Source: Acidobacteriota bacterium (lineage in GTDB: Bacteria; Acidobacteriota; Blastocatellia; HR10). From it: a stretch of 64,000 bases of DNA. Positions 12,378-63,598 of this stretch are shown piece after piece (the first letter of the stretch is position 1; every line of letters starts with the position of its first letter). The stretch covers positions 262,058 to 326,057 of the forward strand of contig JAUQQC010000002.1 of the NCBI GenBank assembly GCA_030550025.1, read 5' to 3'. The notes beneath the pieces are model-generated. The model searched no databases and was not told the DNA's origin. It saw only the letters and a list, made by a program, of their open reading frames with translations. Position numbers and translations under genes: made by a program.

Positions 12378-13391
12378 ATGCGATGCTTGGTCACAGGAGG
12401 AGCGGGGTTCATCGGTTCTCATCTGGCTGAAGAGCTGTTGCGTGCAGGCCATGCGGTGACCGTCGTGGATGATCTCTCGACCGGGAGCATCGAGAACATC
12501 GAGCCATTGACGTCGGAGGTCCGGTTTCGATACGTCATCGACACGATCTTGAATCGTCGGCTCATGGCGGAGCTGGTGGATTGGGCAGACATCATCTTTC
12601 ATCTGGCGGCGGTGGTGGGGGTGAAGCTGGTCGTCGAAGATCCCGTTCGGGCGATCCGGACGAACGTGCGCGCGACGGAGATCATCTTGGAGCTGGCCGC
12701 GCCGAAAAGAAAAAAGGTGGTCTTCACCTCGACGAGCGAGGTGTACGGTAAGACTTCACGAGTGCCATTTCGGGAGGATGATGATTTGGTCTTAGGGGCA
12801 CCCTGGCGTTCCCGGTGGGGGTACGCCTGCTCGAAAGCCCTGGGGGAATTTCTCGCCTTGGCGTATTGGCGGGAGTATGGGGTGCCGGTTGTGATCGCGC
12901 GCTTGTTCAACACGGTTGGACCGCGGCAGACGAACCGCTATGGAATGGTCATCCCGACGTTCGTCTGCCAAGCACTGCGAGGGGAGCCGATCACCGTGTA
13001 TGGGGATGGGCAGCAGACGCGGAGCTTCTGCTGGGTGGGGGATACGGTGAGGGCGCTCGTGGCCTTGGCCGAACATCCGGGCGCCGTGGGCCAAATCTTC
13101 AACGTCGGCAGCGATGAGGAAGTACGAATCGTGGACGTCGCCCATCAAGTGAAGGCTTTGACCGGAAGCGTTTCCCCCATCGTCTTCATCCCTTATGACC
13201 GTGCCTACGGCGATGACTTTGAGGATATGCGACGGCGCGTGCCCGATCTGACGAAGATTCGGGCCCTGATCGGATATCGGCCGACGGTTCGATTGGAGGA
13301 GATCTTAAGGCAGGTGATCCTGTATTATCGCTCGTCCGAGTGCCAGTCGAAGCTAGACTCTCCAACGGCGATGTCTTTCTCGGGCTTCTGA
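12378..13391 (+). CDS. NAD-dependent epimerase/dehydratase (nucleotide-sugar epimerase/decarboxylase family)
   Basis: MRCLVTGGAGFIGSHLAEELL (GxxGxxG), YACSKALGE (YxxxK), 337 aa; RBS GAGGAGGAAG upstream. Confidence 0.85.
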   Translation: MRCLVTGGAGFIGSHLAEELLRAGHAVTVVDDLSTGSIENIEPLTSEVRFRYVIDTILNRRLMAELVDWADIIFHLAAVVGVKLVVEDPVRAIRTNVRATEIILELAAPKRKKVVFTSTSEVYGKTSRVPFREDDDLVLGAPWRSRWGYACSKALGEFLALAYWREYGVPVVIARLFNTVGPRQTNRYGMVIPTFVCQALRGEPITVYGDGQQTRSFCWVGDTVRALVALAEHPGAVGQIFNVGSDEEVRIVDVAHQVKALTGSVSPIVFIPYDRAYGDDFEDMRRRVPDLTKIRALIGYRPTVRLEEILRQVILYYRSSECQSKLDSPTAMSFSGF

Positions 13392-54623: not shown

Positions 54624-55281
54624 CGCCTCCCGGAACCCCTTCGAACAGCTCTTGTGCGGACCATCCTCGTTGAAGAGGCCATAAGCTTAACGGAATCCGC
54701 TCGCGGCGTCGAGAGCCATCGTCCGCTCGACGCGCGCGCTTTGAATTCGACGCTCGGGAGGCTTCTGGCGCCCCTTGTGGTCGTGCAGCATTCGTGGCGG
54801 GATGGTCGCGCGTTGGAACGCATCACGCGCGAATCGAAGTCTCGCGAAAGGAGGCTATGCGTGAAGGGACATCGAGCCCCTCATCGGTTGGCGGTTCTGC
54901 ATGATCGCCGGGTCTCTGCTCTTGCACGCGGCGACGGTGCTCCCTTGCTTTCTCTTAGCGGGACGACCGACGCTTGGCCCCAGCGCGAGTGGGGGAAGCG
55001 ACGATGACGTTTTGTCGCACGGTTGCTCAAGAGGCGCTCGCCAAGTGAGGGGGACGAGTGCAGCAATAGCGATCTCGACTGAGAGAGGGCTGCACCGGAG
55101 GGACGATCGAGAGCGCACGACATCGCGCACCTCAGGCGTGAGACATCGTTCTTCACTTCCTTGGCGAGGCCGGGGGTCGCCATTGTGGGCGCGCACCAAG
55201 GTGCGGTACGCTTGAGCAGGACAACGGGTGCTGGGTTCTGGGCATCCGTATGAGCGAAAGGATCTCGAGGAGGAGGGAACG

Positions 55282-56733
55282 ATGAATGATTGGCTTCGTC
55301 TCCTTGGAGTCGGGATGCTCTGCGCAGGGATTGGACGAATTCCTGCGCCGCTCGTTCTCGCTCAAGACGTGGCGACGACCCAAAACGATCGGCAGCGCAT
55401 CACGCTGACCATTTATGGGAACGACCTCGGTCTCGTTCGTGAGATTCGTCGAGTGCGCTTGCCGCGCGGGATCGCGCGCGTTCGTGTTCACGATGTGGCG
55501 AGCACGCTCGATCCGGCGACCATCTCCGTGATGGCGCGCGACAGCCGTGCGGCATTCGCCGTGCTCGAGCAAGCCTACGCGTACGACGTCCTCAAGCCCG
55601 ACCGGCTGCTCGAACGCTCGGTGGGGAAGGAACTGACGCTCGTTCGTCGCCTCATGGTAAACGGCGCGGAGCAATTAGTGCCGGTCAAAGCCCTGCTCCT
55701 CGCTTATCGTGATGGTCAAGCCGTGTGGAAAATCGGCGATGAGATCGTCATCCAGCCGGCGATCGCCGAGATTCGCTTCCCCTCGATCCCGGAGGGATTG
55801 ATGGTTCAGCCGGCGCTGCTGTGGACGGTGCGGAATGAGGCCGGGAGCGAGCGAGAGCTGGAAGTGTCTTACCTGGCCAGAGGTTTCAGTTGGGAAGCGC
55901 ATTACGCCATGATGGTGGATGACGCCGAACGCATGGCCGATCTGAGCGTTTGGGCGACGGTCACGAACCAAAGCGGCATCGCCTTTCGCAATGCCGAGTT
56001 GCGGCTGATGGCCGGAGAGATTCAGCGCGTCGGCCCCTCGCGACCCCGCGAGGTCGAACTCTACGCGCTCGCTCGCAAGGAGCCGGTTCAAGCCCCGGAC
56101 GTGCAACCACAAGACGTCTTCGAGTATCATCTCTACGCGTTCGACCGTCCGGTGACTCTCGAACAGAACGAGACGAAACAACTGGCGCTCGTGGCAGCTC
56201 GCAATGTGAGCCTGAGGAAGGAGTACGTGGTGACCGGGCAAGGATATTATTATCGTCAGCCGGTCGAGCCCGGGCAGCCTATTCGCGAACCCGTGCGCGT
56301 GACGCTCAGCTTCAAGAACACACAGGAGCACGGTCTTGGCCTTCCGCTCCCGGCCGGAACGGTCCGCATCTACAAGAGAGATCCGCAGGCCGGCCCACAA
56401 CTCCTCGGTGAGGATCGCTTGCCACACACTCCGCGCGAGGAGTGGGTGCGGGTCAACGTCGGACGCGCCTTCGATCTCGTCGTCGAGCGCCGGCAGACGG
56501 CATTTCAACGCATTGGTCGCGACGTCTACGAGTCCGAGTATGAGTTGCTCGTACGCAATCGCAAAAGCGAGGACATCACACTCACGGTCATTGAGCCCGT
56601 CGGGGGAGATTGGGAGGTCGTCCATTCGACCTTCCCGTGGGAACGATCGGGAGCCTTCGCGATTCGGTTCACCGTTCCGGTCGCGCGCGGTGCCGAAGCC
56701 AAACTCGTCTACCGCGTGCGCGTGCGATCATAA
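55282..56733 (+). CDS. Secreted hypothetical protein, DUF4139-like (MuiA-like) family
   Basis: Signal peptide MNDWLRLLGVGMLCAGIGRIPAPLVLAQD; ITLTIYGNDLGLVREIRRV...ATISV...VLEQAYAYDVL pattern resembles DUF4139; strong RBS GAGGAGGAGGG; family call from memory only. Confidence 0.5.
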   Translation: MNDWLRLLGVGMLCAGIGRIPAPLVLAQDVATTQNDRQRITLTIYGNDLGLVREIRRVRLPRGIARVRVHDVASTLDPATISVMARDSRAAFAVLEQAYAYDVLKPDRLLERSVGKELTLVRRLMVNGAEQLVPVKALLLAYRDGQAVWKIGDEIVIQPAIAEIRFPSIPEGLMVQPALLWTVRNEAGSERELEVSYLARGFSWEAHYAMMVDDAERMADLSVWATVTNQSGIAFRNAELRLMAGEIQRVGPSRPREVELYALARKEPVQAPDVQPQDVFEYHLYAFDRPVTLEQNETKQLALVAARNVSLRKEYVVTGQGYYYRQPVEPGQPIREPVRVTLSFKNTQEHGLGLPLPAGTVRIYKRDPQAGPQLLGEDRLPHTPREEWVRVNVGRAFDLVVERRQTAFQRIGRDVYESEYELLVRNRKSEDITLTVIEPVGGDWEVVHSTFPWERSGAFAIRFTVPVARGAEAKLVYRVRVRS

Positions 56734-56742
56734 GCGCGTCGG

Positions 56743-57888
56743 TCAGGCCGCCAGCGATGCGCTCTCGGAGGTCGAGGGCGCCTCCTCCAGAAGCGGGCAG
56801 TGTGGGGGTAACGCCGCAAGCTTCCGCCGAATGATGTCGCGTGAGTACTTCTCGACATAGTGCACGATCGTCTCGACGCGAATCTTGATGCTGCCGGCCG
56901 GCTTAGTGGCATCCAGATCGCCGAATTTGAAATAGAGCGTGCCCGAGGCCTCGACGATCTTCTGCGTCGGCGTATAGGTCGGTTGGTCCATCCCGCATTC
57001 GTAGCTGGAGAAACGGATGACGCAAGTGACCCACGGACACCGAGCGGCGACTTTCGCCCCCCACAGGATCTCATTCGTGTTGCTGCTGTAGGATGAAGGC
57101 CAGACGTCGGAGATATCAAAGGGGCTCTTGATCCGTCCGGCGCGAATCTCTTCGCCGAAGAGCCAGTGCATGAGATCGTCATCGGTGGGGAAGTACTGCA
57201 TCCAGAGGATGGGGAATCCGTGGGCTTGCAGTTCGGCTTCGATCTCGTGCCCGATGCCCGGATCCATGTGATACGGGCGCGCGAGCACGAGGATGCATGG
57301 GCGCTCATGACGCGCGCACCAGGTGAGGATCTCCCGGCTCTTCTGCCGCATCTTCTGATTGAACGCTTCCAGGGCACGGTATCCGGCCTCGACGGCCCGC
57401 GCCGTCTCCTCTTCGGTAAGGTCGAGGACGTCTTTGAGCGCGAGATAGAGCTGCTTCGGGACCTTCTCCGGCTCGCCGAGTGAGACAAACGGCGAGACAT
57501 ATCGAATCCCGTTCTCGGCGAAGACATCCCGCTCTTTGAGAAATCCCGCCTTGATGTTCTCCGGTCCGGCCATCACCCGCGTGCAGGTGAGCGTGTCCAG
57601 CACATGGCCGCGCAGAAAGGAGGGCAGGGAATAGATCATCGGGCTCAGCAGGACGTCGATCTTCTTCTTCTGGCCGAAGATCAATTCCCCATAGTGCCCG
57701 CTCATGCACTTGACCGGATAGCAGCAGTCCACCGTACCGCGCCCCTTCCCATACTCGCGATACTGCTCTTCGGAAGTGTCGGAGCTGAAGACGATGTTCT
57801 CGGGCGCGATCCCCAAGGCCGTCAGAAATCCCACCCAGAATTGATGAGTGCTCCAGATGTTCAGGACCTTCGGGATCCCTACGCGCAC
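56743..57888 (-). CDS. HgdA/HgdB-like protein; likely DUF2229 (CoA enzyme activase uncharacterised domain)
   Basis: VRVGIPKVLNIWSTHQFWVGFLTALG N-terminus resembles the DUF2229 start; Cys cluster GTVDCCYPVKCMSGHY; GTG start at ~57888 with AAGGA RBS; last gene of the activase operon. Confidence 0.55.
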   Translation of the reverse strand: MRVGIPKVLNIWSTHQFWVGFLTALGIAPENIVFSSDTSEEQYREYGKGRGTVDCCYPVKCMSGHYGELIFGQKKKIDVLLSPMIYSLPSFLRGHVLDTLTCTRVMAGPENIKAGFLKERDVFAENGIRYVSPFVSLGEPEKVPKQLYLALKDVLDLTEEETARAVEAGYRALEAFNQKMRQKSREILTWCARHERPCILVLARPYHMDPGIGHEIEAELQAHGFPILWMQYFPTDDDLMHWLFGEEIRAGRIKSPFDISDVWPSSYSSNTNEILWGAKVAARCPWVTCVIRFSSYECGMDQPTYTPTQKIVEASGTLYFKFGDLDATKPAGSIKIRVETIVHYVEKYSRDIIRRKLAALPPHCPLLEEAPSTSESASLAA

Positions 57889-57901
57889 CGACGAGCGATC
57901 C

Positions 57902-60079
57902 TTAGGCGGCGACGCGGCGGAAGCCCTCTTTCCGAACAAAGTCCGCAATGTTGGGATACGCATTTTTCGTCTTCTCCAGTTCGGCTTTGATGGCCTTCAT
58001 CTCGTTGACGTCCTCGACAAGCCCCTTCGGACACGAATTGTTCACGATCACGCGCTCCCATCCTTCGGGGAGAGGGACTTTGCTCCACGGACGCCCTTTT
58101 CCACCCGGCAATTCGACGTCAATGAAACTGCGTTGGCAGTTGACGGGACACCACTTGCACACCGTATCGGGCGATGTCGTCGTCTTGTAGGTGAGGTTCT
58201 CGATGACGTCGAAGCCGCGGAAACGGGTACGCCCGCCGCGCTCCCACCATTCGTGGGCGATGAGTGCCGCGCCGATGGCCCCCGCTTCGCCCGAATACGG
58301 GTGGACGACGATCTCGGCCTCTGGGACTTTCGACTTGATGAAATCCACTTGCGCTTTGACGACGGCCAAGTTCTTATGCGTCCCTCCTTGGAGGATGAAT
58401 TTTCGTCCGACCTGCGCGAGATTGTTCAATCCGCCGGCGTAGATCCACACGTTCAGCGGGAGGATGGCGCAGAGTCCGGCGAGGATCTCCTCGGCCTGCC
58501 AGCCCTTGCGTTGCTGGTTCACGATGTCGCTCTGAAGGAAGACGCCGCAGCCCATCGTCAATTGGGGCATGGCTTGCGCGCGAAAAGCGTAGTCGGCGAT
58601 CTGCTCCAGGGGGATACCAAAGCGCTCGGCCACGCCTTGAAGGAAGGCACCATTGCCCGACGAACATTGTGAATTGAGCCGAAAGTCCGAGACCGTGCCG
58701 TTTTTGAGGATCATGATCTTGACGTCTACTCCTCCCACGTCACAGATGCAATCGGCATCGGGGAAGAAATAGAGTCCGGCCGTCGCGTGCGCGATCGTCT
58801 CCACCACCGCGCAATCAGCTCCGATGATCCCTTTGAGCAGGTCCTTCCCATAGCCGGTGATGCCGACGGCCAGGATCTCCCCGTCCCCGACGGCCGCTCG
58901 AATCTGGCGAAAGAGCGCCTTGGCGTCCTCGATGGGATTGCCACGGCTGAGGGCATAGCAGGAGAAGACCAGTTCTCTCTCAGGCGAGAGACAAACGGCT
59001 TTGGCCGTCGTTGAGCCGAAGTCGCATCCAAGGATCACGCGCGAGAGATCAGGGGCTGTGTGCCCCTTCCGAGGGGAGAGTCGAGAATCAGCGCGCCCAT
59101 TGCTCCCGTAAGTGAGTCGAAATCGCTGCAACTCCTCCGGCGTCGCCCAGAGGCCCTTTCGCCCCTCTCGCTTCTTCTCCTCGTACTGCCCCTCTTCGAT
59201 CCACCACTGGAGCTTCTCTCTGCCTCGGTACACGCCGGTATGCTCCGGCTCACGCCGCGCGATCTCGATGCATCCGAGGGCCGCGTAATAGAGCGCGTCC
59301 TTGGGGACGTAGATGAGCGAGGCGGGATCGCGATCCTCCGGCAATGGGACCTTCCGTTCCTTCCAAATCTTGAGCAGGTGGTGGCGCCAGGCTTCTTGTA
59401 AGCCTTTGAAGAAGAGGTTGGGCCCGCCAAGGAGCAGGACTTCCGGCATCGGCGTGTTGCCGCGGGTGAGCGTCGCGAGATTCTGATAGACGACGGCCTC
59501 AAAGAGCGAAGCGATGATCTCCTCGACCGAAACGCCCGCCTTCAGCAACGTATTGGCATCGGCCTCGGCGAAGATGCCGCACTTGCTGCTGATCTTATGG
59601 AGCGGATACCCCTCGTAGCGCATCTCCGCCAATTGCTCCAGTGGAATCTGCAGCTTGCGCGCGGTCTTCTCGATGAACGTGCCCGTTCCCCCTGAGCAAG
59701 CGCTCTGCATGAGGACCTGCTTCCCTTTGGAGTGGCCGTCGCCGGTGAAGAAGATCGTCTTCATGTCCTCGCCGCCGATCTCGCTGACGAATCGCACGGC
59801 CGGATGCAAGCGCTCGACGGCCGCCGCCACGGCGACGACTTCCTGAACAACCCGAGCGCCCACGAGCGAAGCGATCAAGCCAGCTCCTGATCCCGTGAAG
59901 AAGATGCGGTCTCGTCCCGGCGTCAGCCCATACTCGTGTTCCAAGCGGGTGAGGAATTCCAAAACCTTCTCCGCCTGTCGCGTGTTGTGTCGCTCGTAGG
60001 CGTGCGCCAAGATCTCCCCTTCGGGCGATGCCAGAACGTATTTGCACGTCGTGCTGCCGACATCCATGCCGCAGATCAT
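57902..60079 (-). CDS. Tandem BadF/BadG/BcrA/BcrD (HgdC-like) activase ATPase: two ASKHA-fold [4Fe-4S] activator domains
   Basis: ICGMDVGSTTCKYVL and ILGCDFGSTTAKAVCL (phosphate-1 loops), SACSGGTGTFIEKTARKL and NSQCSSGNGAFLQGVAERFGI (HgdC CAAGTG-type motifs), C-terminal CKWCPVNCQRS; ATG at ~60079 preceded by AAGGAGGGG. Confidence 0.85.
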   Translation of the reverse strand: MICGMDVGSTTCKYVLASPEGEILAHAYERHNTRQAEKVLEFLTRLEHEYGLTPGRDRIFFTGSGAGLIASLVGARVVQEVVAVAAAVERLHPAVRFVSEIGGEDMKTIFFTGDGHSKGKQVLMQSACSGGTGTFIEKTARKLQIPLEQLAEMRYEGYPLHKISSKCGIFAEADANTLLKAGVSVEEIIASLFEAVVYQNLATLTRGNTPMPEVLLLGGPNLFFKGLQEAWRHHLLKIWKERKVPLPEDRDPASLIYVPKDALYYAALGCIEIARREPEHTGVYRGREKLQWWIEEGQYEEKKREGRKGLWATPEELQRFRLTYGSNGRADSRLSPRKGHTAPDLSRVILGCDFGSTTAKAVCLSPERELVFSCYALSRGNPIEDAKALFRQIRAAVGDGEILAVGITGYGKDLLKGIIGADCAVVETIAHATAGLYFFPDADCICDVGGVDVKIMILKNGTVSDFRLNSQCSSGNGAFLQGVAERFGIPLEQIADYAFRAQAMPQLTMGCGVFLQSDIVNQQRKGWQAEEILAGLCAILPLNVWIYAGGLNNLAQVGRKFILQGGTHKNLAVVKAQVDFIKSKVPEAEIVVHPYSGEAGAIGAALIAHEWWERGGRTRFRGFDVIENLTYKTTTSPDTVCKWCPVNCQRSFIDVELPGGKGRPWSKVPLPEGWERVIVNNSCPKGLVEDVNEMKAIKAELEKTKNAYPNIADFVRKEGFRRVAA

Positions 60080-60127
60080 CGCTTCCCCTCCTTGCGGACG
60101 GCTTCTCGTCAAGAGACCTCCTGACGC

Positions 60128-61645
60128 TCACCGCATCTTCCGCGCCAGGTGCATGACGTAATTGGCCGCCGTGCCCGCATAGCCATAGTGCGGGATACGA
60201 TAGGTGCTCCGCTGGACCTCCGGATGCCGCTCCTCATAGCGGCGGATCGCCTCCAGGGTGAGGCCGGTCTTGGCGAGCGCGTCCTCGAATTCCGCATGAG
60301 CGCGTCGCTTGGCTTCGGTCAGGATCATCTGGCATCGGGAGAGCGCGTGCACTTCAGCATCTCCCTTCACCTCGATCGGCGCATAGAGCAGATCCGGATA
60401 GCGGCCGAGCACGTTGGCCATCGCGCCAATGGACATCGTGTTCGGCATGCAGGAGTAGGGTGACAGCTCACAAATCATGTGTGCCTTTTTATGCCGATAG
60501 GCATAGAGCGCTTTCCCCACGAGCATGTGCCCTTCGCCCCCGCGTAGTTCGTAGTGGTAGTAGGGTTTGGCCAAGTGCTTGAGCTCCTCTTGATCGGGAA
60601 GCTCGTAGGGGAGATTGCCGAGTGCCTTGCGAAAGCGATTGTAGACGAAGTGATAGATGTGCTCCAAGGTTCGAATGAGCGCGATCTTCTTGCGGTTGCG
60701 CTCGGCACCCTTCCATTCCTCAGAGGTAATCGGCGAATGCAGCAGATAGTCGAGCCAGACAGCAATCGGCGGCGGAATGACCTCGGCCCCTTCTTGCTCG
60801 AGCCATCGCTTGATGTTGTAGTTGCCATCGCCCTCATGCGTCTGGAGCCAGAATTCGCCCGTGATCTTCACCTTCGGCTTGACGCGAAGCCGATCCACGC
60901 GAATGGCATCCCAACGCTTCCGCACGTCGCGCAGGGCATCGGTGAAGTAGTCGGTCAGGACATGCCAAGCGAAGACCTTCAGCTTCCCTCCACGTAGCTT
61001 CTCCTGAGGCCGATTTCGGAAGACGTCGTACAGATACTCGATGCTCTCGCGCAGGACCCGATCCGTCTCTCCGGGGACGATCTCGTAAGGACGCGTCATA
61101 TATTCGAGGTCGGTCAACACATCGGCGCAGAGGATCGCCCAGACAAGCCCCAGGCTCAAGGGGAGATTGATCTCTAACCCCCCGCCGTGGGTCGCCCCTT
61201 GATCGAGTTGATTCTGCGCCAGCAGGAAGAGGCGGAAGTCCCGAAGGCCAAGCCCATCGAGCGCCATCGTGTACGATTCATGATATTGCCCAAACCGGCA
61301 GGGACCACACGCCCCCGCCGTCAGAAAGACATAGCGCTTCACGACCTCCTCGCGACCCAGCGCGGCCATCTCCGATTTGAGGAAATTCGCCAAGTTCCCC
61401 GTCGTGAAGATCGTCGGACAGCACGCCCCGACGTCAATCAGCTCCTTCCCCGCATCCAAATCCGCGCGCGTGATGTTCGGAAGCGGCTGGGCCTTGTAGC
61501 CCAAGTTATGCATCACGCCCTGGATCAATCGCTCGTGCTTCCAGGTCAACCCTCCGAAGAGGATCGTCACCGTCGCCCGCTCCTCTCGCGTGAAGGGGCG
61601 AGGCCGATAGGCCGTATAGTGGTTGATCCTCTGGATCGTCTCCAT
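60128..61645 (-). CDS. HgdA/HgdB-like (2-hydroxyacyl-CoA dehydratase D-component-like) protein
   Basis: 505 aa; Cys motifs VGACCPTIF and AGACGPCRFGQY; C-terminal CELSPYSCMPNTMSIGAM; first gene of the operon; ATG at ~61645 preceded by GAGGAAGAGGAGGTG. Confidence 0.55.
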   Translation of the reverse strand: METIQRINHYTAYRPRPFTREERATVTILFGGLTWKHERLIQGVMHNLGYKAQPLPNITRADLDAGKELIDVGACCPTIFTTGNLANFLKSEMAALGREEVVKRYVFLTAGACGPCRFGQYHESYTMALDGLGLRDFRLFLLAQNQLDQGATHGGGLEINLPLSLGLVWAILCADVLTDLEYMTRPYEIVPGETDRVLRESIEYLYDVFRNRPQEKLRGGKLKVFAWHVLTDYFTDALRDVRKRWDAIRVDRLRVKPKVKITGEFWLQTHEGDGNYNIKRWLEQEGAEVIPPPIAVWLDYLLHSPITSEEWKGAERNRKKIALIRTLEHIYHFVYNRFRKALGNLPYELPDQEELKHLAKPYYHYELRGGEGHMLVGKALYAYRHKKAHMICELSPYSCMPNTMSIGAMANVLGRYPDLLYAPIEVKGDAEVHALSRCQMILTEAKRRAHAEFEDALAKTGLTLEAIRRYEERHPEVQRSTYRIPHYGYAGTAANYVMHLARKMR

Positions 61646-61671
61646 AAGCGCACCTCCTCTTCCTCGCAACA

Positions 61672-61701
61672 CCCACTAGACTGACATGTCAGTCTAGTGG
61701 G
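61672..61701. promoter_or_regulatory. Perfect 30-bp palindrome CCCACTAGACTGACA|TGTCAGTCTAGTGGG between the TetR gene and the activase operon; candidate TetR operator
   Basis: 15+15 nt with no mismatch and no spacer, read directly; on the coding (minus) strand a T7 run lies upstream of it rather than downstream; coordinates +/- 2 nt. Confidence 0.5.
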
Positions 61702-61715
61702 GAGGTAAAAAAAAT

Positions 61716-62357
61716 TCACGACGTGGCCGAGCGGGCGAAGACGCCGCGCAGGCCGAAGTTGAAAAGCTCCTCAACGACGATCTCAAGCGGCGGAAGATCC
61801 TCGCGATGAGTCGTCAACTGATCGGCCACCTCCTTCATCGTCCCCAAGATGCAAGAGGCGACGATACGCGTTTGACAAGGGCGTACCAGGCCCATGCGAA
61901 TCCCATGCTCCAGAGAGCGCTCGATGAGCGAAAGGACGCGGTCGTAGAAAGCCTGCAGCATGGCAGCCGAGCGTTCGTCCAAGCCCACTGCCTGATGGAG
62001 GAGAATCTTCGTCAGCTCGGGATCATGGACGAGAAACTCCAGGACGCGACCAATGTTCGCCTTGACTTGCGCGAGCGGATCGGGCGCACCCGGGCTGAGG
62101 TCAATGGGCCGAATCCGTTGGCGCAGCTCCTTGAGGACTTCGTCCAGGAGACTATCGAAGATATCACGCTTGCTTGTGAAATAGAGATAGAACGTCCCCC
62201 GCGCGATGCCCGCGCTTTCGATGATGTCTGAGACGCTCGCGTTGTGATATCCCTTCTGCGAGAAGACCTGTTTGGCGAAGAAGAGGATCTGATTCCGCCG
62301 TGTCTCCTTCAGCTCTTTCAGCTCCTTATGGACGACCACCTCGCCCATCCTCGACAT
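61716..62357 (-). CDS. TetR/AcrR-family transcriptional regulator
   Basis: RRNQILFFAKQVFSQKGYHNASVSDIIESAGIARGTFYLYFTSKRDIF is a TetR HTH; start chosen at M11 (GGAGA 5 nt upstream); the ORF-track start at 62387 is also possible. Confidence 0.85.
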   Translation of the reverse strand: MSRMGEVVVHKELKELKETRRNQILFFAKQVFSQKGYHNASVSDIIESAGIARGTFYLYFTSKRDIFDSLLDEVLKELRQRIRPIDLSPGAPDPLAQVKANIGRVLEFLVHDPELTKILLHQAVGLDERSAAMLQAFYDRVLSLIERSLEHGIRMGLVRPCQTRIVASCILGTMKEVADQLTTHREDLPPLEIVVEELFNFGLRGVFARSATS

Positions 62358-62582
62358 AAAAGTCTCCATGAAGAGCAGGAAACTCATATCACATGAGGTC
62401 CACGTCTGTCAAGCTGAGTTTGGCGAAACGAGACGGTGACTTCGGGGAAACTTGGCGGACAGGGCGATGGGCCGTTCAACCGCAGGCCCCAAGCAAGGGC
62501 ATCACACCTCTTTCGCCCAAGGGGCTCTCACATTCGGGTTCCGTGAACAGGGTGCAGCAGAGCGCAAGCGCGAAAGCGCTCG

Positions 62583-62792
62583 TCACTTACTGTAGCGATA
62601 GGTGATCCGTCCTCGCGTCAGATCATATGGAGAGAGCTCCACGCGCACGCGATCCCCCGGTAGGACGCGGATATAGTTCTTCCGCATCTTCCCAGAGAGG
62701 TGCGCGAGTACCTCATGGCCGTCGCCATCGAGCTTCACGCGGAAGGTCGCATTGGGCAGCGCCTCCACGACCGTTCCATCCACCGGAATCAT
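62583..62792 (-). CDS. infA: Translation initiation factor IF-1
   Basis: [61 protein letters not shown] aligns along the full length with bacterial IF-1. Confidence 0.95.
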
Positions 62793-62828: not shown

Positions 62829-63281
62829 TCATTGATCGTGTTCGATGTAGGTGAACGAGACATCGCGCTCATCCTCCGATTCCGAGGCTGAGACGCGCGC
62901 GCGCAGCCACGCACTATAGTTGAGCGGTACCAGCGCGAACTTCTCCGTCACTTGCGAGACCAAGCGCTCGCCCAGCTCCATCCGCAGATACTCCAAGAAC
63001 CGCTGTATCTCTCGCTGCATGGCGTCCATCTTGTCCCGCATGTTGAGGATGATCTCCACTCCTGCTAGATTCACGCCCAACTCGCGCGTGAGCGTCAGGA
63101 TGAACTCCAATCGCTCGAGGTCCTTCTCGGAATAATACCGCGTGTTCCCCTTGGAGCGGGAAGGTTTCAACAGCCCATGCCGCTCGTAGAGCCGTAACGT
63201 CTGAGGATGAATCCCATAGGCCTCAGACACCGCGCTGATCGTGTAGCCTTTCTCTTTCCTCTTCTTCACCCCATCGACCAT
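62829..63281 (-). CDS. hspR: MerR-family heat-shock transcriptional repressor HspR
   Basis: YTISAVSEAYGIHPQTLRLYERHGLLKPSRSKGNTRYYSEKDLERLEFILTLTRELGVNLAGVEIIL resembles the HspR HTH and dimerisation region; sits next to dnaK with HAIR-like operators. Confidence 0.8.
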   Translation of the reverse strand: MVDGVKKRKEKGYTISAVSEAYGIHPQTLRLYERHGLLKPSRSKGNTRYYSEKDLERLEFILTLTRELGVNLAGVEIILNMRDKMDAMQREIQRFLEYLRMELGERLVSQVTEKFALVPLNYSAWLRARVSASESEDERDVSFTYIEHDQ

Positions 63282-63340
63282 CTTCCGTGCCCGCGCTCAG
63301 GAGGATGAGACACACGCTCGTTTCCGAAAAGGTATGCTAA

Positions 63341-63362
63341 TATATGAGTCTAGCTTTGTCAA
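63341..63362. promoter_or_regulatory. HAIR-like inverted repeat (HspR operator) on the hspR side of the divergent region
   Basis: ATATGAGTC-tagctt-TGTCAAG; the minus-strand reading CTTGACAaagctaGACTCAtat resembles the HAIR consensus CTTGAGT-N7-ACTCAAG and contains TTGACA. Confidence 0.45.
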
Positions 63363-63423
63363 GTTTTCGACACCCCATTCTCCTTGGGAGGGGGAATCGG
63401 CAGGACTTGCGTTGTGGTGGGGA

Positions 63424-63453
63424 CTTGACAAACTCGGACTCATATTTTATTAT
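63424..63453 (+). promoter_or_regulatory. HAIR-like inverted repeat overlapping a TTGACA-17-TATTAT promoter directed toward rpoZ-dnaK
   Basis: CTTGACAaactcgGACTCATAT followed by TATTAT; near-exact reverse complement of the 63341-63362 element. Confidence 0.5.
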
Positions 63454-63598
63454 AAGGATCGGCTAAAAGCTTGTGGTTCTGCTTTTAGCCGCATCAAAGG
63501 CGTTTGAACGCGGGTCGTTCATTGAGTATAATCTCCTGGCGCGAGGGAATGGGCTCGTGATGAGTCCGTGAAGACCTCACGACCAGGAGGGAGGGACA

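Follow-up and report, generated by a model that had tools for sequence, protein, structure and literature searches.

What does a perfect 30-bp palindrome do between a tetR gene and a set of genes resembling those of ATP-driven radical enzymes? The question arises from a stretch of 64,000 nucleotides of an Acidobacteriota bacterium (Blastocatellia, HR10; GenBank assembly GCA_030550025.1, contig JAUQQC010000002.1), henceforth the window, from whose first letter all positions are counted. Here the sequence CCCACTAGACTGACATGTCAGTCTAGTGGG separates tetR, coding for a FadR-like TetR-family regulator, from three genes that we call p505, p736 and p406 (Table 1). An initial annotation, made from the letters alone, had read the palindrome as an operator rather than a terminator. 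Comparison with related loci leads us to regard it as quite likely that the palindrome is the operator of the adjacent TetR repressor, through which the three downstream genes would be controlled; this is the best explanation of the evidence as a whole.

The palindrome is exactly as first described, a 15+15 inverted repeat without a spacer, and the gap around it indeed measures 70 nt, from the tetR stop codon (TGA, 61718..61716) to the ATG of the next gene on the minus strand (61645). One correction concerns the identity of that gene: it does not code for an activase, the double activase being encoded by the second gene. The chance of such a palindrome is as negligible as had been supposed, the analytic expectation for the window being about 6e-5 (64000 x 4^-15), and neither the rest of the window nor 100 shuffles contained a match to the 30-mer with up to 3 mismatches. 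Of the 78 inverted repeats found in the window, CCCACTAGACTGACATGTCAGTCTAGTGGG is the sole perfectly complementary long palindrome. The search for further copies that the annotation had suggested, run here within the 64-kb window, recovered no relatives of the central 14-mer with up to 3 mismatches and no second TGACATGTCA-type site or half-site beyond chance. A literature search for ACTGACATGTCAGT and TGACATGTCA likewise returned unrelated primer or eukaryotic matches only.

Conservation of the palindrome beside tetR

To follow the site from the side of the regulator, we used a profile of 31 TetR homologues, which yielded 80 loci (one genome per species, 586 kb). The core ACTGACATGTCAGT lies just past the stop of the tetR orthologue in more than 35 of them. 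The 18-mer pattern AGACTGACNNGTCAGTCT, with up to 3 mismatches, occurs 64 times against about 2 expected by chance (an estimate from the information content of the pattern), and all 64 matches adjoin either tetR or the 5' end of the operon. The motif is present in each of the 23 loci that hold tetR together with the p505/p736/p406 cluster: it stands between the two in 17 and upstream of tetR in 6, in 4 of which tetR almost abuts or overlaps the cluster, while two loci with this arrangement (L004 and L020) have a 98-151-nt gap between tetR and the cluster. In five Myxococcota loci among the 17, 0.4-1.8 kb of other DNA intervene between tetR and the cluster, and the motif is still found 37-72 nt from the cluster start. 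These associations span at least nine phylum-level groups (Acidobacteriota, Chloroflexota, Poribacteria, Spirochaetota, Latescibacterota, Myxococcota, Aquificota, Binatota and Thermodesulfobacteriota), across which the TetR proteins share 40-65% identity. About 35 Binataceae loci also carry the motif beside a tetR orthologue; there it again follows tetR, but the genes downstream code for a HAD-family hydrolase and then a protein with a LarA_N domain. Since the targets differ, TetR and not the target is the constant partner of the motif. The locus therefore displays what is expected of a TetR-family operator, namely an inverted repeat of about 15-30 bp (a 30-bp palindrome with a 24-bp core) and conserved linkage to a TetR-family gene (23 syntenic and about 35 Binataceae loci).

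The extent of the operator can be read from the same alignments. The consensus reaches 3 bp beyond the 18-mer on either side, giving the 24-bp core ACTAGACTGACATGTCAGTCTAGT, and complementarity further out is at background. Hence, of the 30 bp originally taken as the operator, the central 24 are conserved, whereas the outer CCC/GGG is lineage-specific. The arm variants AGACTGAAGTGTCAGTCT, AGAATGAC and GTCAGTTT break the symmetry without compensation. All 30 bp are kept in the closest relatives (L001, L165 and L166) and 34 bp in L002, and the CCCAC/GTGGG extension is retained in five close relatives though the neighbouring 5' untranslated region has diverged. Other perfect extensions occur elsewhere (CTCTCAC/GTGAGAG, AAGAC/GTCTT, GCCAG/CTGGC and GTCGCA/TGCGAC), and 16 sites have at least 5 extra pairs against about 3 such sites expected.

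As an observation in its own right, the operator is extended to perfect palindromes of 30-34 bp by differing, covariation-like flanks in seven loci (L122, L140, L148, L196, L185, L095 and L125). Such extensions beyond a 24-bp protein site may reflect either a hairpin role in read-through RNA or the template-switch 'perfection' of a strong palindrome. At the start of one contig (L189, 1-64) the operator forms the centre of a perfect palindrome of 64 bp, a probable fold-back assembly artefact; sites near contig ends were left out of the flank statistics.

Starting instead from the motif, we found the exact 18-mer AGACTGACATGTCAGTCT in more than 119 copies or contigs in metagenomes. The genes that start within 200 nt of these copies encode TetR (19), activases (11, along with p505-like genes without a Pfam match), HAD proteins (11), CPBP/Rce1-like proteins (9), fatty acyl-CoA reductases (4) and 3-hydroxyacyl-CoA dehydrogenases (2), as well as enoyl-CoA hydratase, an AMP-binding enzyme and SCP2; patatin genes end next to some copies. 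In the 625 kb of motif-first loci there are 39 TetR-like open reading frames (ORFs), all but one of which lie within 1 kb of a site. The copies that have no TetR gene nearby fit a regulon with several operators per genome.

The position of the site relative to promoters is equally telling. At 35 site-sides there is a canonical TTGACA-16/18-TAnnnT promoter, compared to 1.4% of background segments, and these promoters adopt three geometries: the operator starts 6-10 nt past the -10 element, as in TTGACA-17-TATAGT-ctcact-AGACTGAC; its left arm is itself the -10 (TTGACA-17-TAGACT); or it fills the spacer (TTGACT-AGACTGACATGTCAGTC-TATAGT). These are the standard positions of a repressor. In the Myxococcota loci the operator is doubled, with one copy over the -35 and another past the -10. 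Taken together, the conserved core, its placement, the overlap with promoters and the non-compensatory changes argue for an operator over a terminator, as the annotation had preferred.

An operator of some other regulator, a dispersed repeat of the REP or MITE (repetitive extragenic palindromic or miniature inverted-repeat transposable element) kind or a recombination site that came to lie next to tetR by chance might be invoked for the many metagenome copies with no TetR gene within 300 nt. We consider this very improbable: the window has a single copy in 64 kb, the placement in relatives is gene-specific, no transposase or terminal repeats are associated with the motif, the TetR orthologue is the sole constant neighbour when the targets change, and the TetR-like ORFs of the motif-first loci cluster at the sites as described above.

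The regulator and the genes downstream

The window genes around the palindrome are all on the minus strand. The closest genomic relatives are an uncultured Blastocatellia metagenome-assembled genome (94% TetR identity) and 'Bacterium HR10'. TetR combines a TetR_N domain (6.5e-16) with a TetR_C_24 domain (5e-7), and its best NCBIfam match is the Bacillus-type FadR family (NF053878), with a score of 68.9 bits that does not reach the 200-bit equivalog cut-off. Among solved structures, 3lwj and the FadR entries 5gp9/5gpc, 1vi0 and 3whb come nearest. In the alignment of the 31 TetR homologues the recognition helix ARGTFYLYF is invariant.

Table 1. Coordinates of the palindrome, the genes and the candidate promoters in the window
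Feature	Position	Strand	Remarks
Perfect palindrome CCCACTAGACTGACATGTCAGTCTAGTGGG	61672-61701	.	30 bp; 15+15 inverted repeat, no spacer
Conserved operator core ACTAGACTGACATGTCAGTCTAGT	61675-61698	.	24 bp
Most conserved 18-mer AGACTGACATGTCAGTCT	61678-61695		
T8 tract	61707-61714	-	coding strand; 1 nt past tetR stop, 12 nt upstream of AGACTGAC, 5 nt upstream of palindrome
Weak candidate internal promoter	61691..61719	-	GTGAAT (61719..61714, over tetR stop), 17-nt spacer, TAGACT (61696..61691, left operator arm); 7/12 consensus
Candidate tetR promoter	62383..62412	-	TTGACA (62412..62407), 18-nt spacer, TATGAG (62388..62383); read from sequence
tetR	62357..61716	-	213 aa, FadR-like TetR-family regulator; start ATG 62357, GGAG and 6-nt spacer before it
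p505	61645..60128	-	first predicted target; 505 aa, Cys-rich, DCCP/HgdB/BcrB-like; ribosome-binding site GGAGG 61657..61653
p736	60112..57902	-	second predicted target; double BcrAD_BadFG (HgdC-type) activase ATPase; PF01869 5e-75 x2; TIGR00241 2.6e-71
p406	57963..56743	-	third and last predicted target; DUF2229 protein; PF09989 1.2e-43
DUF4139 ORF	55228-56733	+	neighbouring ORF
infA	62792..62583	-	
MerR/HspR-like gene	63281..62829	-	

The operon consists of three genes, because the next gene lies on the opposite strand. The ATG at 61645 can be taken as the start of p505 because alignments with homologues begin at residue 1, with divergence upstream of it. The p505 protein has no Pfam or NCBIfam match, PF06050 included, and its identity across more than 100 protein clusters, the majority of them from Acidobacteriota, is 72-95%. 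Its AlphaFold2 model (predicted local distance difference test 79, predicted template-modelling score 0.86) best matches DCCP (7yyl_B, 6eno), 2-hydroxyisocaproyl-CoA dehydratase (3o3m) and subunits of 3-methylbenzoyl-CoA reductase, with 9gai also listed; these matches are distant, with Foldseek probabilities of 0.8-1.0 and template-modelling (TM) scores of only 0.26-0.43. The same protein occurs on its own as well as in fusions with the double activase (BB) and DUF2229 (D) modules, in both orders: p505-BB-D in a protein of 1623 aa (P0271) and BB-D-p505 in one of 1579 aa (P0299). A 1454-aa BB-D-X protein is encoded directly behind a copy of the motif.

Two PF01869 domains and one PF09989 domain form the conserved 'BBD' core of Ger (glycerol ester reductase) and PlsA (PMC13159169), and BBD proteins of Acidobacteriota, Latescibacterota and Chloroflexota have already been discussed as homologues of Ger (bioRxiv 10.64898/2026.06.23.733905). 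The operon has the same set, with PF01869 twice in p736 and PF09989 in p406. Its membership of the PlsA/Ger family is thus plausible on the strength of its domains, and p505, the double activase and the DUF2229 protein may together form an ATP-driven iron-sulphur radical enzyme with the domain set of these ether-lipid enzymes. In the papers that we checked we found no description of a regulator for PlsA/Ger enzymes, nor of a TetR link to DUF2229, Ger or PlsA.

The palindrome would accordingly provide a 24-bp operator, along with a candidate regulator, for a very widespread and uncharacterised enzyme system related to PlsA/Ger. The PlsA/Ger family makes bacterial ether lipids and has been discussed as a source of the branched glycerol dialkyl glycerol tetraether (brGDGT) markers of palaeoclimate. 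The motif makes it possible to predict regulons across many uncultured phyla, and its neighbours (HAD, CPBP, fatty acyl-CoA reductase and patatin) point to a regulon for lipid remodelling.

Two further elements were seen elsewhere in the window. A 32-nt inverted repeat (63333-63364 and 63423-63454), with 78% complementarity, gives rise to a mirror-image pair of canonical promoters, of which one faces the MerR/HspR-like gene and infA and the other an RNA_pol_Rpb6-like ORF and a dnaK-like start. The element CTTGACAAA-N4/5-GACTCATAT, common to both promoters, is a possible HspR-type operator. The plus-strand promoter is closely followed by a perfect 11-bp stem, CGGCTAAAAGC-N10-GCTTTTAGCCG (63460-63491), within the leader that precedes the Rpb6-like ORF and dnaK.

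How the site may repress

In the absence of its ligand, TetR would sit on the 24-bp core and silence the three genes that follow. Like the FadR of Bacillus, it probably binds as two dimers, an analogy that is reasonable because the half-site contains GAC twice at a 4-bp offset, just as the FadR box contains GAAT twice. A lipid-type ligand, by the same analogy most likely an acyl-CoA, would then release TetR and permit expression; the TetR_C_24/FadR similarity and the lipid genes near copies of the motif suggest such a ligand.

The gap itself offers little by way of a promoter for TetR to block. The scan found no canonical promoter there, and the sole overlap of the palindrome with a promoter is the weak 7/12 candidate, which the scan did not report. 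The tetR gene has a candidate promoter of its own with no operator at it, whose hexamers, TTGACA and a -10 of the TATGA(G/C) type, are kept in four relatives (L001, L002, L165 and L166); the strict scan missed it because its -10 has no T at position 6. By eye, sigma-54 and Bacteroidetes-type promoter patterns did not fit, and an antisense promoter starting from CTGACA has no usable -10 at 16-18 nt.

What the gap does contain, and what the initial annotation had passed over, is a run of eight T (T8) on the coding strand. In the whole window, with its GC content of 62%, only one other T/A run reaches 6 nt (12710-12715). Separately from its bearing on the palindrome, the presence of just two such runs in 64 kb suggests that terminators of the hairpin-plus-U-run type are rare in this stretch of the genome. 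A T6-10 tract occurs at 58 of 362 site-sides, against 2.4% in the background, with a distance that peaks at 11-12 nt, and it is found at 35 of the 43 places where tetR ends just upstream of a site. The T-tract and a canonical promoter overlap only once. The tract 11-12 nt upstream of the operator is conserved in both Acidobacteriota and Binatota (L006-L050 included), and a similar pair occurs in Poribacteria. The T-tract was also considered as a -35 element and as the end of a hairpin terminator lying upstream, and both readings were rejected: by eye, neither a consistent hairpin nor a TTG-17-TAGACT spacing was seen across loci. A Pfam search of the flanks of L114-type T-tract sites gave no informative match. 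Assigning the orientation of the upstream gene by the longest ORF was tried and not used, as it mislabels loci with known tetR in GC-rich DNA.

The Binataceae present the most compact form of this arrangement. There the T-tract lies inside the coding end of tetR, in at least 2 reading frames, and the palindrome fuses the two genes: its TGA is the stop codon of tetR and its central ATG, which no Shine-Dalgarno sequence precedes, the start codon of the next gene (L010, 4636-4653, and about 30 other loci). This leaves no room for a promoter or leader before the next gene. A TTGACA promoter that lacks an operator also serves the Binataceae tetR; upstream of the gene the strict scan reported promoters in 4 of 35 cases, and inspection showed a conserved TTGACA with a -10 of the TAGTGT/TACGGT type, which the strict rule excludes. 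Hence, the downstream genes can hardly be expressed save by read-through from tetR, and the operator must act in these loci on the elongating polymerase.

Extending this to the window, polymerase that starts from the conserved, operator-free promoter of tetR would meet TetR as a roadblock at the end of the gene and stall immediately before it, within or close to the T8 tract, where the weak rU:dA hybrid may help. If the site is an operator, we give a roadblock to read-through close to an even chance of being the mode of repression. It is favoured here because the window shares the composite of T-tract and operator with the Binatota; the conserved tetR promoter without an operator, the lack of a conserved -35 in the gap and the fixed distance of the T-tract in two phyla all speak for it. 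More speculatively, the composite might be a repressor-gated terminator, in which polymerase stopped by TetR is released at the rU:dA hybrid and the ligand allows read-through. A DNA-bound protein would then take the part of the terminator hairpin, a notion that we put forward tentatively, the same composite reaching the tetR stop and the next start in Binatota. Should the composite prove to be such a terminator, dependent on a roadblock, an operon could be gated from the promoter of its own regulator in a compact manner that is new.

Several observations weigh against parts of this account. TetR is found within 300 nt at just 14 of the 53 motif-first sites with adequate flanks, and therefore the case for the adjacent TetR as the protein that binds the site rests on co-occurrence. 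With TetR scoring far below the FadR equivalog cut-off, the choice of ligand is a guess. The lineage-specific, perfect CCCAC/GTGGG extension is unaccounted for by a protein site of 24 bp. With respect to the roadblock, polymerase is as a rule reported to stall 11-18 bp ahead of an obstacle, and the T-tract, which ends 8-9 bp before the 24-bp core, is a rough fit. Some T-tract sites lie in contexts without a demonstrable upstream co-directional gene. Finally, TAGACT is demonstrably a -10 element at other loci.

The last point leads to the strongest of the rival explanations, which keeps the same operator and TetR and has the protein occlude the weak promoter GTGAAT-17-TAGACT, covering its -10 and start, with the T-tract serving as a spacer or upstream element. 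In four other loci TAGACT is used as a -10, at five sites, 17 nt behind TTGACA, TTGACT or TTGACC; several Binataceae and the Spirochaetia locus L020 have, as their upstream arm, the variant AGAATGAC, which gives TAGAAT; and the T-tract occurs also where tetR does not end just upstream. However, the -35 of the window candidate matches the consensus at 3 of 6 positions, runs into the tetR stop and occupies a position that is conserved neither among Acidobacteriota nor among Binataceae, and there is no extended -10. In the Binataceae, a start about 7 nt past TAGACT would fall downstream of the ATG. Moreover, the T-tract is not a general feature of promoters here, given the two runs in 64 kb and the canonical promoters found elsewhere. 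Occlusion is thus a possible mode but a rather doubtful one.

A role at the level of RNA appears improbable. Here a hairpin of 13-15 bp in the read-through RNA from tetR to the operon would stabilise or process the mRNA or mask the ribosome-binding site of p505, with protein binding secondary or absent. The intergenic RNA does fold stably (-39.1 kcal/mol, z = -3.6), an upstream CCUC/UUUUU pairs with GAGG/AAGAG near the ribosome-binding site, and the outer CCCAC/GTGGG, lineage-specific yet conserved within its clade, would be understandable in this light, as would the excess of sites with extra pairs. Against this, the core is conserved as sequence and not as pairing, its arm variants being uncompensated, and complementarity beyond 3 bp on either side of the 18-mer is at background. 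The left arm is often in or before the -10 and so would not be transcribed, and a search of 61400-62700 with the Rfam 15 covariance models gave no match at E <= 1.

The possibility that the palindrome is the intrinsic, Rho-independent terminator of tetR, which a strong GC-containing hairpin right after its stop and a nearby T8 run might suggest, can be practically dismissed, since the T-run is upstream of the hairpin, no U-run follows it on either strand, as had been noted at the outset (downstream, the sense strand reads UGUUGCGAGG; the A-run is antisense), the terminator scan is negative there and the same sequence sits within promoters in other genomes.

Comparison with known systems

The closest parallel to the proposed TetR-operator pair is the Bacillus-type FadR (YsiA), which is the best NCBIfam match of TetR and whose structures (5GP9/5GPC and 1VI0/3WHB) are among the closest over the whole length. 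The two share the recognition helix GT(I/F)YLYF, including the Gly and Tyr that contact DNA: in the FadR of B. halodurans these are G42 and Y45 (PMC5397183), both of which align with identical residues in our protein. That FadR binds a 21-bp pseudo-palindrome, the FadR box TGAATGA..TCATTCA, as a dimer of dimers (PMC5397183). Both operators are palindromes of about 21-24 bp whose half-sites hold a short repeat at a 4-bp offset (GAATGAAT in the FadR box, GACTGAC here), which in FadR permits the binding of two dimers, and both regulons have a lipid or acyl-CoA flavour. The differences are equally clear. With 68.9 against 200 bits TetR is not an equivalog of FadR, and the operator ACTAGACTGACATGTCAGTCTAGT is unrelated to GATGAATGAATACTCATTCAT. 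The main target is an operon for an activase, a DUF2229 protein and a DCCP-like protein instead of beta-oxidation genes, and the regulator gene precedes the operator.

With its length of 24-30 bp, the site may also be occupied by two dimers in the manner of QacR. As in QacR-IR1 and TetR-tetO, there is a palindromic site by the regulator gene that overlaps a promoter or start in many relatives. Unlike in those systems, the regulator and its targets are co-directional, the operator comes after the stop of the regulator, there is no divergent promoter and the range of phyla is unusually broad.

In roadblock repression, a repressor bound at a site within a transcription unit, as with LacI, CcpA, CodY and PurR, blocks the elongating polymerase, whose release is attributed to Mfd or Rho in a review (PMC10310618). 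The resemblance lies in an operator at the junction of tetR and the operon with a promoter upstream of tetR only. The system described here differs in the T6-10 tract at a fixed distance before the operator; a search of that review for the terms 'U-rich' and 'intrinsic terminat' gave no match. This positioned tract and the location of the operator at the junction are what is unusual about the system.

With regard to the targets, the plasmalogen synthase PlsA/PlsR and Ger resemble the operon in combining two BcrAD_BadFG domains and DUF2229 with a DCCP/HgdB-like partner, and the same parts, which also recall DCCP/DCCP-R (6ENO, 7YYL), occur fused in single proteins of 1450-1620 aa. In the window the system is instead split over three genes, p505 is without PF06050 and its structural matches have TM scores of 0.3-0.43. 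Set beside these systems, the proposed pair of TetR and its operator is a previously uncharacterised one, ordinary in kind and remarkable for the breadth over which the exact site is conserved.

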